From Escherichia coli O127:H6 str. E2348/69 (GTDB lineage: Bacteria; Pseudomonadota; Gammaproteobacteria; Enterobacterales; Enterobacteriaceae), in assembly GCF_000026545.1 (NCBI RefSeq), contig NC_011601.1: a DNA stretch of 64,000 bases, one strand, 5' to 3'. Position numbers and translations under genes: made by a program. The notes beneath the pieces are model-generated. The model worked only from the letters and a program-made list of their open reading frames with translations. It was not told where the DNA came from and searched no databases. Below, piece by piece: positions 5,741 to 64,000 of the stretch; position 1 is the first letter of the stretch, and the number at the start of each line of letters is the position of its first letter.

Positions 5741-7135
5741 TTGAGCCGTTTCGTTCCTCGCATTATTCCGCTTTATTTACTCTTGCTGGCGGCAGGCGGT
5801 ACAGCTAACGCACAATCTACCTTCGAGCAAAAAGCGGCGAATCCCTTTGATAATAACAATGATGGTCTGCCAGATTTAGGCATGGCACCCGAAAATCATG
5901 ATGGGGAAAAACACTTTGCTGAAATTGTGAAAGATTTCGGCGAAACCAGTATGAATGATAACGGGCTGGATACTGGCGAGCAGGCAAAAGCTTTCGCATT
6001 GGGAAAAGTCCGCGACGCGCTTAGTCAACAGGTTAATCAGCACGTAGAGTCCTGGCTATCACCGTGGGGAAATGCCAGTGTTGACGTCAAAGTGGATAAC
6101 GAAGGACATTTCACCGGCAGTCGTGGAAGCTGGTTTGTGCCGTTACAAGATAATGATCGTTATCTCACCTGGAGCCAGCTTGGTCTTACTCAGCAGGATG
6201 ATGGGCTGGTGAGCAATGTGGGCGTTGGGCAACGCTGGGCGCGCGGCAGCTGGCTGGTGGGTTATAACACTTTTTATGACAACTTGCTGGACGAAAATCT
6301 TCAGCGAGCGGGCTTCGGTGCCGAAGCGTGGGGCGAATATTTGCGACTATCGGCAAACTTTTATCAGCCGTTTGCTGCATGGCATGAACAGACAGCCACG
6401 CAGGAACAACGGATGGCGCGCGGGTACGACCTGACAGCCCGAATGCGCATGCCGTTCTATCAACACCTCAATACCAGTGTCAGCGTAGAACAGTATTTTG
6501 GTGATCGTGTTGATTTGTTTAACTCTGGTACGGGTTATCACAATCCCGTCGCGTTGAGTCTGGGATTAAATTATACCCCAGTGCCATTAGTCACTGTGAC
6601 GGCCCAGCATAAACAGGGTGAAAGTGGCGAGAATCAAAATAACCTCGGACTGAATCTTAACTACCGCTTTGGTGTACCGCTCAAAAAACAACTTTCTGCG
6701 GGCGAGGTTGCCGAAAGTCAGTCGTTACGTGGTAGTCGCTATGACAATCCGCAGCGAAATAATCTGCCGACTCTTGAGTACCGACAGCGAAAAACCTTAA
6801 CGGTGTTTCTGGCGACACCGCCGTGGGATCTAAAACCTGGCGAAACAGTGCCGCTGAAATTACAAATCCGCAGTCGTTACGGTATTCGGCAACTGATTTG
6901 GCAGGGCGATACGCAGATATTAAGTTTGACGCCGGGCGCACAAGCCAACAGCGTGGAGGGCTGGACGCTGATCATGCCTGACTGGCAGAACGGGGAAGGG
7001 GCGAGCAATCACTGGCGATTGTCGGTGGTGGTGGAAGATAACCAGGGGCAGCGTGTCTCCTCCAATGAGATCACGCTAACGCTTGTCGAACCGTTCGATG
7101 CATTGTCAAACGACGAACTGCGCTGGGAACCGTAA
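5741..7135 (+). CDS. ychO: Invasin/intimin-like inverse autotransporter family protein YchO
   Basis: 464 aa with signal-peptide-like N-terminus, conserved position upstream of narL; start uncertain. Confidence 0.8.
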   Translation: MSRFVPRIIPLYLLLLAAGGTANAQSTFEQKAANPFDNNNDGLPDLGMAPENHDGEKHFAEIVKDFGETSMNDNGLDTGEQAKAFALGKVRDALSQQVNQHVESWLSPWGNASVDVKVDNEGHFTGSRGSWFVPLQDNDRYLTWSQLGLTQQDDGLVSNVGVGQRWARGSWLVGYNTFYDNLLDENLQRAGFGAEAWGEYLRLSANFYQPFAAWHEQTATQEQRMARGYDLTARMRMPFYQHLNTSVSVEQYFGDRVDLFNSGTGYHNPVALSLGLNYTPVPLVTVTAQHKQGESGENQNNLGLNLNYRFGVPLKKQLSAGEVAESQSLRGSRYDNPQRNNLPTLEYRQRKTLTVFLATPPWDLKPGETVPLKLQIRSRYGIRQLIWQGDTQILSLTPGAQANSVEGWTLIMPDWQNGEGASNHWRLSVVVEDNQGQRVSSNEITLTLVEPFDALSNDELRWEP

Positions 7136-7786
7136 TCAGAAAATGCGCTCCTGATGCACCCATACCGCTGCTTCCACGCGAGACTTGAGCTTCATTTTCT
7201 TCAGCATGTGCTTGACGTGCACTTTTACTGTGCTTTCGGTGATATCCAGGCGGCGGGCAATCATCTTGTTCGGCAAACCCTGGGCAATCAGCTTGAGTAT
7301 ATCGCGCTCGCGTGGGGTTAACTGGTTAACATCGCGTTCAGTAGTGGCACGGCTAGCGCGCAAGCTGGCGGCCAGAACTGGCGTTAATGCTTCGCTTAAT
7401 ACCATTTCGCCAGCAGCTGCCTGATGTAACGCTTTCAGCAGATCTTCCGGTTCCATATCTTTTAACAGATAGCCATCCGCGCCGCGTTTCAGTGCGGTGA
7501 CCACATCTTCTTCATGGTTAGAGACGCTGAATACCACAATGCGACCGGAGAGGGACTTTTCGCGCAGTTTATCCAGCGTTTCCAGACCATTCATGCCGGG
7601 CATATTGAGATCTAACAGGATCAGATCGGGATCAAGAGATTCCGCCAGTTCAATACCCTGTTCGCCATTACTCGCTTCGCCAACCACGGTGATATCTGGT
7701 GCCATACTGATAAGCTGTTTTACGCCAGTTCGCAGCATCGGGTGATCGTCGATCAGCAGGATAGTAGCCGGTTCCTGATTACTCAT
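7136..7786 (-). CDS. narL: Nitrate/nitrite response regulator NarL
   Basis: 216 aa from [25 protein letters not shown]; REC plus LuxR-type HTH. Confidence 0.95.
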
Positions 7787-50434: not shown

Positions 50435-50790
50435 GCACTCTCCTTGAGTTTTATGCAGGTGTTAATTAGCGGGCAATTGTACCCTGGTTAAGCCTCGGGT
50501 GGCAGCATCAGGTCTTGTATGGAAAAGCATATCTTTGTAAAGCGGAGGTAATTGCTGGCCTTCAGGCGTGGGCAAATCGCGGCAAGTGGCGAACGAGTTA
50601 ATATTTGCGTAGCGAAAATATTTAAAAATTGATTTAAATCACATTAACCAGGATTTTCAATGCAACTTCTAAATTAATCCAGATCAATAAAGGGTGAATT
50701 ATCATATGTAATGTGATCTATGTAGGATCATTTGTTACTCCAATGTAGGTATATTCGTCACGTTTTTATAACCATAACGACGGAGCGGAT

Positions 50791-51429
50791 ATGAAAAAGT
50801 TAACAGTGGCGGCTTTGGCAGTAACAACTCTTCTCTCTGGCAGTGCCTTTGCGCATGAAGCAGGCGAATTTTTTATGCGTGCAGGTTCTGCAACCGTACG
50901 TCCAACAGAAGGTGCTGGTGGTACGTTAGGAAGTCTGGGTGGATTCAGCGTGACCAATAACACGCAACTGGGCCTGACGTTTACTTATATGGCGACCGAT
51001 AACATTGGTGTGGAATTGCTGGCAGCGACGCCGTTCCGCCATAAAGTTGGCACAGCCACTACCGGGGATATTGCGACTGTCCACCATTTACCGCCAACAC
51101 TGATGGCACAATGGTATTTTGGCGATTCAGGCAGTAAATTCCGTCCTTACATTGGTGCGGGTATTAACTACACCACCTTTTTTAATAATGACTTCAATGA
51201 CACCGGTGAAGGTCTTGGTTTATCTGACCTTAGTCTGAAGGATTCATGGGGCGTGGCGGGGCAAGTAGGTCTGGATTATCTCATCAACCGTGACTGGTTG
51301 CTGAATATGTCGGTCTGGTACATGGATATCGATACCACGGCTAAGTACAAATCTGGTGTTACTACCGTAAAAGACTCGGTACGACTGGATCCGTGGGTGT
51401 TTATGTTCTCCGCAGGATATCGTTTTTAA
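50791..51429 (+). CDS. ompW: Outer membrane protein W
   Basis: 212 aa, MKKLTVAALAVTTLLSGSAFA signal peptide, beta-barrel ending in GYRF. Confidence 0.95.
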   Translation: MKKLTVAALAVTTLLSGSAFAHEAGEFFMRAGSATVRPTEGAGGTLGSLGGFSVTNNTQLGLTFTYMATDNIGVELLAATPFRHKVGTATTGDIATVHHLPPTLMAQWYFGDSGSKFRPYIGAGINYTTFFNNDFNDTGEGLGLSDLSLKDSWGVAGQVGLDYLINRDWLLNMSVWYMDIDTTAKYKSGVTTVKDSVRLDPWVFMFSAGYRF

Positions 51430-51434
51430 TTTTC

Positions 51435-51468
51435 TCTGCAAAACCTCTGCAAAACCCCTCTGCAAAAC
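51435..51468. repeat. Three tandem direct repeats TCTGCAAAAC between ompW stop and integrase 3' end
   Basis: Copies at 51435-44, 51446-55, 51459-68; possible integrase arm-type sites (inference). Confidence 0.5.
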
Positions 51469-51474
51469 TGGTCA

Positions 51475-52605
51475 TCAAATGACCAGTTTTTTCCATTCCT
51501 TACCGCGTGCGTCGTTGTAAATATCGGTCATTTTTTGATTCGAATGGCCTAGCAAAATTTTGGTATCAACCCCCTGCTCTCTGAACAATCGCTCTGATAA
51601 AGATCTCTGCTCATGGAAAGAGGGAGGGGTGCCATTAGCACGCCAGTTGTAATCCACAGAATCCCGGGCTTTTTTAAATGCAACGGTTAATGTTGCTGGC
51701 TTAACCATCCCGCCGCGCTTAGCTGTCCCTTTCGCGTGATGGTGGTGCAATAGCCACGGACTAAGAACGCAATCGCGGCAGGATGACACCACATCATCCA
51801 GGGTGAGATTTAATTTATCGCAACGCAGAGCCAGAGGGATGGCAATCCGGGTTCCTGTTTTTTGCTGTTCGACATGAAGATAACCATCCCGGATATCCGA
51901 AAATTGCATTTTGCAAATATCTGAAAGGCGCTGGCCTGTCATCAGTGCCAGCAGCATACCTCGCTGTAAAAAGTAACCATCCTTTTCCGCTGCGTTATAA
52001 ATCATCATCCACTCATCAAAAGTCAGTCGCTGTCTTGATATCCGCACCTGCGGTTTTTTTGCCGATTCTGCAGGGTTAAAGCCTGGCGGGACATCGCCCG
52101 TTTGCTGAGCTTCCCGGAAAACATCGATCAGTACTTTCCTGAAAATTTGTCCCATTCTGTTATGTCCTCTGGCCTTGTACTCTTCCAGTACTGATACCAC
52201 ATCTTTTACGGTTATGGCATCTAACGGTCTGGTGCCAAAACGTTCATCAAATACCCTGAGAGGGGCCGCTTTCTGTTTCAGCGTGTTGAGTTTGATCTCG
52301 CCGTTTTTATATCTTTCCTGTTGAATTTTTCTGTAATTATTCAGAAAAATGGTAACGGTTGATGAACCGCCGGTATCACTAATAATTTTCTCCTGCAGAC
52401 TGAGCATTTGTTCCATTTGCTGCCGGGCAAGACGGCTGTTCGCTTCTGCTGCAATAGTTTCTGCCAGTTTCTGGTCAATACTGCCGAGACCGTGATTTTT
52501 GCCTGTTATGGGATGCCTGTAACGCCAGTAAACTTTGTTATTTCTTTTGTCAAAATACGGAGATAATCCCGGAACATCGGTTTTATATTTTCGCGGGCGC
52601 GCCAT
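51475..52605 (-). CDS. int: Prophage tyrosine integrase
   Basis: 376 aa; HxxR (FHEQRSL) and catalytic Tyr (MTDIYND) near C-terminus; 3' end overlaps hairpin CTGGTCAT-caa-ATGACCAG. Confidence 0.9.
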   Translation of the reverse strand: MARPRKYKTDVPGLSPYFDKRNNKVYWRYRHPITGKNHGLGSIDQKLAETIAAEANSRLARQQMEQMLSLQEKIISDTGGSSTVTIFLNNYRKIQQERYKNGEIKLNTLKQKAAPLRVFDERFGTRPLDAITVKDVVSVLEEYKARGHNRMGQIFRKVLIDVFREAQQTGDVPPGFNPAESAKKPQVRISRQRLTFDEWMMIYNAAEKDGYFLQRGMLLALMTGQRLSDICKMQFSDIRDGYLHVEQQKTGTRIAIPLALRCDKLNLTLDDVVSSCRDCVLSPWLLHHHHAKGTAKRGGMVKPATLTVAFKKARDSVDYNWRANGTPPSFHEQRSLSERLFREQGVDTKILLGHSNQKMTDIYNDARGKEWKKLVI

Positions 52606-52831
52606 CTTCCAGTATCCTCTTCAAAGCAGGGTGATCTGTGGCGATCACCTCCGGCTTGTTTACCATTCCGACAAAGCGAGCTTGCGGATCCACTCGCCAG
52701 CGTCTTCCAACTTTTTTGGGGAGAGGAAATATCATTCCGGCTTTAGCGTATTTACTTAACGTACTCGGAGTTGGGACCGGTTCACTGAATTCCTCTTTTG
52801 CCCACTCAGTGAGCAGAATAAGTCTTGCCAT
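52583..52831 (-). CDS. xis: Excisionase/AlpA-like DNA-binding protein
   Basis: 82 aa, overlaps int start, GRRWRVDP motif. Confidence 0.7.
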   Translation of the reverse strand: MARLILLTEWAKEEFSEPVPTPSTLSKYAKAGMIFPLPKKVGRRWRVDPQARFVGMVNKPEVIATDHPALKRILEDGAPAKI

Positions 52832-63980: not shown

Positions 63981-64000
63981 GAGACCAGGCGGGGGAGAAT

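Follow-up and report, generated by a model that had tools for sequence, protein, structure and literature searches.

The integrase-side attachment arm of prophage PPompW in Escherichia coli E2348/69: a crossover core inside ompW, candidate arm-type sites, and a predicted terminator

Introduction

In phage lambda, a heterobivalent integrase (Int) with an arm-binding domain is encoded next to three tandem P' sites that end at the int stop codon and have the arm motif CAGTCACTAT. A P-arm site at about -145..-135 is followed by an IHF site, the xis gene overlaps the start of int, and a hairpin downstream of int serves as a retroregulator (sib). Phage 21 (like e14) carries a surrogate 3' end of its target gene, which is icd for phage 21. 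A terminator comes next, and then three tandem 11-bp repeats ending in CAAAAC that abut the int stop; an extra copy of the repeat lies in the P arm together with an IHF consensus.

The locus analyzed here, at ompW of E. coli, resembles lambda in its heterobivalent Int, whose catalytic residues align, in three predicted P' sites ending at the int stop, in a P-arm site at the same distance followed by a predicted IHF site, and in the xis overlap. With phage 21 it has in common the surrogate gene end and, next to the int stop, a triplet of 11-bp units that end in CAAAAC. An extra P-arm copy with an IHF consensus is likewise shared, and the two P arms can be aligned. It differs from phage 21 in its target (ompW instead of icd), in the 5' half of the repeat (CTCTG instead of TTCCC), and in the position of the predicted terminator, which follows the repeats and overlaps the int stop. 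The differences from lambda are larger: Int is only 36% identical, the arm motif is another one, the core is inside a protein-coding gene, the P' sites are ~60 bp further from the core, and neither a P2-like inverted copy at <=2 mismatches nor an H'-like site at strict consensus was found.

The element itself belongs to a described family. Nakamura et al. (2021, PLoS Pathog, PMC8112680) reported the PPompW prophages of STEC and EPEC, for which the integration target is ompW. Attachment sites (attL/R) of 121 bp were given for O145:H28, and the attP of the PPompW family was sequenced from excised circles by PCR after mitomycin C (PMC8112680). The PPompW of E2348/69 is relatively well conserved, yet no packaged DNA was detected (PMC8112680), and for this reason the att sites in E2348/69 may be out of use now. 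The prophage, its ompW target, and the att duplication are already published, this strain included (PMC8112680). In the PPompW GenBank records (LC567818-LC567841) the insertion (att) duplications are annotated, and the encoded Int is 99.7% identical to the Int of this locus. Arm-type sites have 0 occurrences in the main text of PMC8112680, as has the word "C-terminal" for a replacement of the ompW end, and we found nothing specific in the literature on arm-type sites in the PPompW Int lineage.

The DNA studied here, called the window, is a stretch of 64,000 nucleotides that is 100% identical to E. coli E2348/69. Positions 51430-51490 are the integrase-side attachment arm of the known lambda-like prophage PPompW of EPEC E2348/69. 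This is a real but ordinary attachment site, which follows the standard lambda/phage 21-type design. What we add is a motif for the arm sites, with a partner copy and an IHF site in the P arm, a narrower core, and the assignment of a terminator.

Results

Features of the Locus

The features are given with window coordinates, strand, and the evidence for each.

50791..51310, plus strand: host-derived 5' part of ompW, 520 bp (100% identical to the prophage-free strain Ecol_745).
51311..51336, no strand assigned: att core within ompW, CGGTCTGGTACATGGATATCGATACC, the region of crossover (common to attL, attR, and the empty site).
51337..51429, plus strand: phage-borne surrogate ompW 3' end, 30 codons and stop (diverges from both native alleles).
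51434..51468, plus strand: three tandem CTCTGCAAAAC, predicted arm-type Int sites P'1-P'3 (repeat scans, attP, relatives).
51464..51492, no strand assigned: 12-bp hairpin and T6 run, predicted bidirectional intrinsic terminator, which holds the int stop (fold, covariation).
51475..52605, minus strand: int, lambda-family heterobivalent tyrosine integrase, 376 aa (Pfam domains, catalytic residues).
52583..52831, minus strand: xis excisionase, 82 aa, which overlaps the int start by 23 bp (Pfam Exc PF07825, RefSeq).

An att Core inside ompW

The hybrid ompW open reading frame (50791-51429, plus strand) encodes 212 residues and ends with the stop TAA at 51427-51429. The product matches the Pfam OmpW profile over its full length (1-195/195) and retains the C-terminal GYRF. 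In the prophage-free B2 strain Ecol_745 (L002), which represents the empty site, ompW runs directly into trpA, and identity between this strain and the window ends at 51336. Some other genomes also match the query only as far as this position. At the far end of the element, ~53 kb off and beside trpA, E2348/69 contains a pseudogene annotated by RefSeq as "OmpW family, missing N-terminus", which marks attR.

Alignment of attL in the window, attR (L003 10167-10142), and the empty site leaves a single segment common to all of them, the 26-bp CGGTCTGGTACATGGATATCGATACC. To the left of this core attL is host sequence, and to the right of it attR is host sequence. The core occurs at each of the two prophage ends, and the empty site has a single copy. 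It is also found in the intact attP of phage 204576 (CP025907.1; L004), in which the P arm, the core, ompW', three repeats, the hairpin, and int are contiguous. When this independent attP is compared, the stretch of unbroken identity shortens to 21 bp, TGGTACATGGATATCGATACC (51316-51336). The core lies 91 bp upstream of the ompW stop. Since it is shared by attL, attB, and attR at this distance, the crossover is placed by these alignments within ompW, at 51311-51336, and everything from 51337 onward is assigned to the phage. By the same comparison, codons 183-212 of ompW and the stop come from the phage, as do the repeats and the hairpin. The in-frame replacement restores a full-length reading frame and leaves the native 3' fragment at the other end, as in the icd integrations of phage 21 and e14.

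A sequence-only reading of this DNA had proposed an integration at the 3' end of ompW or within it, with the phage possibly supplying the last codons and terminator of the gene. This was borne out by the core inside ompW, the displaced native fragment, and the prophage-free strains, which differ in both the codons and the predicted terminator and are without the repeats. The alignment with prophage-free ompW (Ecol_745, K-12), which that reading had named as the comparison able to refute it, found neither the repeats nor the CTGGTCAT hairpin, and the search for the other prophage end that it recommended led to attR beside trpA with the 26-bp core duplicated. The host/phage junction had to be moved, however: it had been put at 51430-51490 and is ~100 bp further upstream. 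Nor does the attachment core overlap the 3' end of int; only the P' arm sites and the hairpin abut int.

The duplicated identity of 26 bp in the B2 host E2348/69 is much shorter than the 121-bp att published for O145:H28 (PMC8112680), although the element family and the ompW target are the same. The published att is long because the native ompW 3' end in O145:H28 resembles the phage copy, and the alignment in the B2 host places the crossover more precisely.

In E2348/69, attL and attR both have GGTC as the four leftmost bases of the core. O145:H28 has AGTG instead at its two prophage ends, and so does the attP of phage 204576. The positions compared were L003 10167-10164 (attR of E2348/69), L005 ~43883 (PPompW_132418), and L004 ~1500 (phage 204576). 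E2348/69 and PPompW_132418 (L005) have the same P arm despite their differing core edges. The difference suggests either an exchange of alleles at the edge or phage variants with different core edges.

In a separate observation, made ~120-380 nt upstream of the repeats in the viral contig IMGVR_UViG_643886067_000001 (L033), a non-ompW, fimbrial-usher-like coding sequence stands in front of the core and the phage ompW'. The join (...CATGACGGTC|TGGTACATGG) is immediately to the left of the core and could reflect insertion at a secondary site or a rearrangement.

The Integrase and Its Candidate Arm-type Sites

The protein encoded next to the repeats has the two domains of a heterobivalent integrase. 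An N-terminal arm-DNA-binding domain (Arm-DNA-bind_1, PF09003) covers residues 2-71 (E = 7e-22; 77.7 bits against a cutoff of 22), and the tyrosine recombinase catalytic domain (Phage_integrase, PF00589) covers residues 193-367. The catalytic residues Arg-226, Lys-249, His-331, Arg-334, His-354, and Tyr-363 fall in columns that are invariant with lambda Int. Over the whole protein, identity is 50.5% to phage 21 Int and 36-37% to the Int proteins of lambda and HK022.

Three tandem repeats after the ompW stop had been seen in the sequence-only reading, and their unit proved to extend to the 11-mer CTCTGCAAAAC, with copies at 51434-44, 51445-55, and 51458-68. TRF describes the array as 3.0 copies with a period of 11. 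These are the only three matches to CTCTGCAAAAC in the 64-kb window when both strands are searched with one mismatch allowed, and the 9-mer CTGCAAAAC is likewise confined to the array within the window. Across 11 junctions the unit TCTGCAAAA is invariant and the spacers vary (C/T); the adjoining ompW' segment is highly variable across the same 11 junctions.

A motif outside the core is present on both arms of attP, with three copies in P' and one in P. The fourth copy, TTCTGCAAAAC, is in the P arm of phage 204576 and has the same orientation as the P' copies. It is located at -145..-135 from the core center, and lambda P1, measured alike, is at -144..-135. The P' sites are at +108..+142. In the attP of phage 204576 the P-arm copy is followed, ~20 bp further on, by the IHF consensus AATCAGACAGTTA, a predicted accessory site. 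A search of this attP with the regular expression WATCARNNNNTTR gave a single match, where 0.08 would be expected by chance; as a control, the same expression recovered exactly H1, H2, and H' in lambda. The consensus is conserved at the aligned position in phage 21 and in three P-arm variants, namely that of phage 204576, that of E2348/69 and PPompW_132418, and that of L027. The P' arm of the ompW phage attP has no strict IHF consensus between the core and the P' sites, which means no H'-like site at that stringency, and no inverted P2-like copy of the arm motif was found in this attP at <=2 mismatches.

Related integrases are accompanied by triplets of their own. Phage 21 (Int 50.5% identical; target icd) has three copies of TTCCCCAAAAC abutting the int stop and one copy in the P arm. 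The record OL657228.1 annotates this triplet as "attP... 3 subsites P1P2P3, consensus YYTTCCCCAAAA". Phage vB_EcoS-813R8 (Int 44.7%; target potC) has three TCTCCAAAAC-like copies, and Klebsiella phage Kp4865-4 (Int 52.8%) has three copies of TTATCAAAAY. As judged from these alignments, relatives of the integrase keep a triplet at the equivalent place with a lineage-specific sequence. Two viral contigs, L025 and L029, contain, in this order, an icd' surrogate, a terminator, three copies of the identical TCTGCAAAAC, and a divergent int. The same motif is thus found in icd-integrating phages, and therefore it follows the Int lineage and not the target gene.

The three Int proteins paired with the TCTGCAAAAC motif have the N-terminal residues RPRK[Y/F]..PGL in common, and those of the others differ. 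In L029 Int, identity is 63% in the N-terminal domain and 50% in the rest; in L025 Int, the values are 47 and 49%. At the level of these alignments, identity over the whole N-terminal domain does not separate the motif-sharing integrases cleanly from the others.

The sequence-only reading had taken the repeats for arm-type sites. The Arm-DNA-bind_1 domain, the P-arm copy at the position of lambda P1, and the triplets of the relatives all point the same way and support the assignment of the repeats as putative arm-type Int sites.

The Hairpin at the int Stop Codon

The hairpin AAAACTGGTCAT-caa-ATGACCAGTTTT spans 51464-51490 and has a stem of 12 bp that is 100% complementary. It had been described previously as a perfect hairpin at 51468-51486 containing the int stop. 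The perfect pairing and the enclosed stop stand, but the stem is longer than this. The int stop TGA (51475-51477) straddles the border of stem and loop, with one base at the end of the left arm and two at the start of the loop. On the plus strand the hairpin folds with -14.4 kcal/mol (z = -6.5), and 0 of 200 shuffled sequences fold as well; on the int strand the value is -14.9 kcal/mol. The hairpin is followed by U6 on the plus strand and by U4 on the minus strand. A consensus scan for terminators does not list it. The stem consists of 8 bp with four G-C pairs, extended by four A-U pairs and followed by T6, and the scan probably misses it because part of the T-run is taken up by the added A/U pairs of the stem. 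We judge this to be a limitation of the scan and not evidence against a terminator.

All stem positions pair in 8 distinct haplotypes. A compensatory change from C-G to U-A is found in RM10740 and F1022, where it is synonymous in int (GTC to GTT). In the Br190 variant one pair becomes G-U, which is paired only in the plus-strand RNA; on the minus strand it is a C-A mismatch. Covariation in the hairpin amounts to one or two events, and as its score is also attained in 20 of 500 shuffles, it is modest support for the fold.

Prophage-free strains have terminators of their own in this place. In Ecol_745 (B2-type), ompW is followed by CCGCCAGAtgttttCTGGCGG (-21.1 kcal/mol), and in K-12 by GACCCCGTAatataCGGGGTC (-16 kcal/mol). 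The PPompW hairpin occupies the place of these native terminators. Phage 21, Kp4865-4, and the icd phages each have a separate terminator between the gene surrogate and the repeats; in PPompW the predicted terminator appears to have moved to the int stop instead. From its fold and position, we take the hairpin to be, most likely, an intrinsic terminator that acts in both directions, on the hybrid ompW and on int.

Variation in the Phage-borne OmpW Segment

The phage-borne 3' segment of ompW (51337-51426) occurs in at least five protein alleles when L002, L005, L010, L011, L012, and L022 are compared. Examples are TAKYKSGVTTVKDS, TASYKFNGTPVKDA, and TAKYKSDGRKLAKGSYSDN, of which TAKYKSDGRKLAKGSYSDN is 5 residues longer. 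Two native ompW 3' alleles were seen. The variation falls between the last two predicted β strands, and the final strand, VRLDPWVFMFSAGYRF, is invariant. The replaced segment extends from just after strand β7 to the C terminus and probably includes the last extracellular loop, L4, because the usual topology of the barrel is eight-stranded.

Distribution of the Junction and Other Observations at the Locus

Among 5426 complete E. coli genomes, 1719 contain the repeat block and 1714 (~32%) contain the ompW-int junction. Most strains have three copies of the repeat, and the number ranges from 3 to 5. Four copies were observed in CEC13002 (L007), and five in ERL03-1416 (L008) and in F1022 (L014 2501-2556). 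H100, the sole listed match without an annotated integrase, was rejected as an integrase-less case, as its locus has int and five repeats. Two viral contigs, L021 and L030, were set aside as unrelated, with two copies separated by an AT spacer in a different context. In L021 (IMGVR_UViG_3300011511_000009), TCTGCAAAACATTCTGCAAAAC is found at 7112-7138, directly after the gene for a GC-rich unrelated tyrosine integrase and in the opposite orientation relative to that int. Chance may explain this occurrence, or it may be an arm site that belongs to another lineage.

In E2348/69, ompW and trpA are separated by a degraded composite element of ~53 kb (2682141-2735407 in the record), which runs past window position 64000. 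It contains, in order, a lambda-like prophage with nleA, a frameshifted second integrase, tail-fiber fragments, nleH1-2, nleF, an espO fragment, and the ompW' fragment at the far end. Among its insertion sequences are ISEc13, IS200C, and remnants of IS3 and IS256. The 21-bp sequence GTCATGCAGTTAAAGTGGCGG is present in the P-arm-proximal region of E2348/69 near attR (L003 ~10494-10474, minus strand); it has been named attB-in-PP_1, a yecE-like attB for Stx phages inside PPompW (PMC8112680). On the host side, a 90-bp pseudogene fragment at 50462-50551, annotated by RefSeq as a YkgJ family cysteine cluster protein, lies between yciC and ompW in all strains inspected, whether or not they carry the prophage.

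Discussion

We consider it very probable that the segment following ompW is the P' arm of attL of PPompW, with three arm-type Int sites and a bidirectional terminator, and that the phage entered by Int-mediated integration inside ompW. In this scheme, in which we infer the binding of Int and of IHF and the termination of transcription, Int would catalyze site-specific recombination at the 21-26-bp core inside ompW (51311-51336), and the phage copy of the last 30 ompW codons lets integration regenerate a full-length hybrid gene. The N-terminal arm-binding domain of Int would most likely bind the CTCTGCAAAAC triplet, as with lambda P'1-P'3. The fourth copy and the predicted IHF site are in the P arm, which is located at attR in the prophage, and the arm sites and the IHF site together would allow Int to bridge arm and core in integrative and excisive complexes. 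The hairpin and T-run most likely replace the native ompW terminator and would also end the convergent int transcript.

Other readings of the repeats and the hairpin were weighed against this scheme. The repeats might be a slippage-prone tandem array that plays no part in recombination, or they might act in cis in the 3' UTR of the hybrid ompW, for example as an A-rich element related to Hfq or sRNAs; in either case their place between ompW' and int would be fortuitous. A copy number of 3 to 5 among strains does fit simple slippage, and the repeats are transcribed within the ompW 3' UTR, because the terminator hairpin comes after them. Neither proposal accounts for the fourth copy, which is across the core, in the P arm and at the lambda P1 position, or for the three tandem units of different sequence that relatives hold in the same place. 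The repeats of phage 21, Kp4865-4, and the icd phages come after the terminator and are therefore outside any 3' UTR, and a search of 50600-52000 against Rfam (E <= 1) gave no match. We regard a slippage array or UTR element as quite improbable. The proposal that the phage inserted behind an intact host ompW, so that 51430-51490 would contain the junction and the repeats or hairpin would be host sequence or the core itself, has practically no chance of being correct: it has the position of these elements beside the ompW stop in its favor and nothing further, and it is refuted by the empty-site identity that stops at 51336, by the contiguity of the DNA from 51337 onward with the P arm in attP, and by the native ompW 3' end at attR.

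The hairpin, for its part, could act mainly as an RNase III retroregulator of int, like lambda sib, and not as a plain terminator. It overlaps the int stop, and it folds equally well on the int strand. However, it is in the P' arm and is linked to int in the phage and prophage states alike, which would remove the state-dependence that sib needs. The Br190 variant, with its pairing confined to the plus strand, and the better U-tract on that strand also argue against it, and we think a primarily sib-like role unlikely. A hairpin that serves chiefly as the terminator of the hybrid ompW and of int is the reading that we retain.

OmpW is the receptor for colicin S4. With several phage-borne alleles of the presumed loop in existence, PPompW-type integration could conceivably act as a cassette exchange that alters a surface-exposed epitope of OmpW or one of its receptor loops, which would amount to lysogenic conversion subject to diversifying selection. 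We find this doubtful and offer it tentatively; if true, it would stand against a neutral restoration of ompW.

For annotation, the real boundary of the prophage falls within ompW, in a core that measures <=26 bp. Together, the CTCTGCAAAAC triplet, its P-arm copy, and the IHF site make up a usable signature for attL, attR, and attP of this Int lineage, which brings type III effector cargo into both EPEC and STEC. In lysogens, the last 30 residues of OmpW and the terminator of ompW are phage-derived, and this is relevant wherever OmpW is typed or studied.
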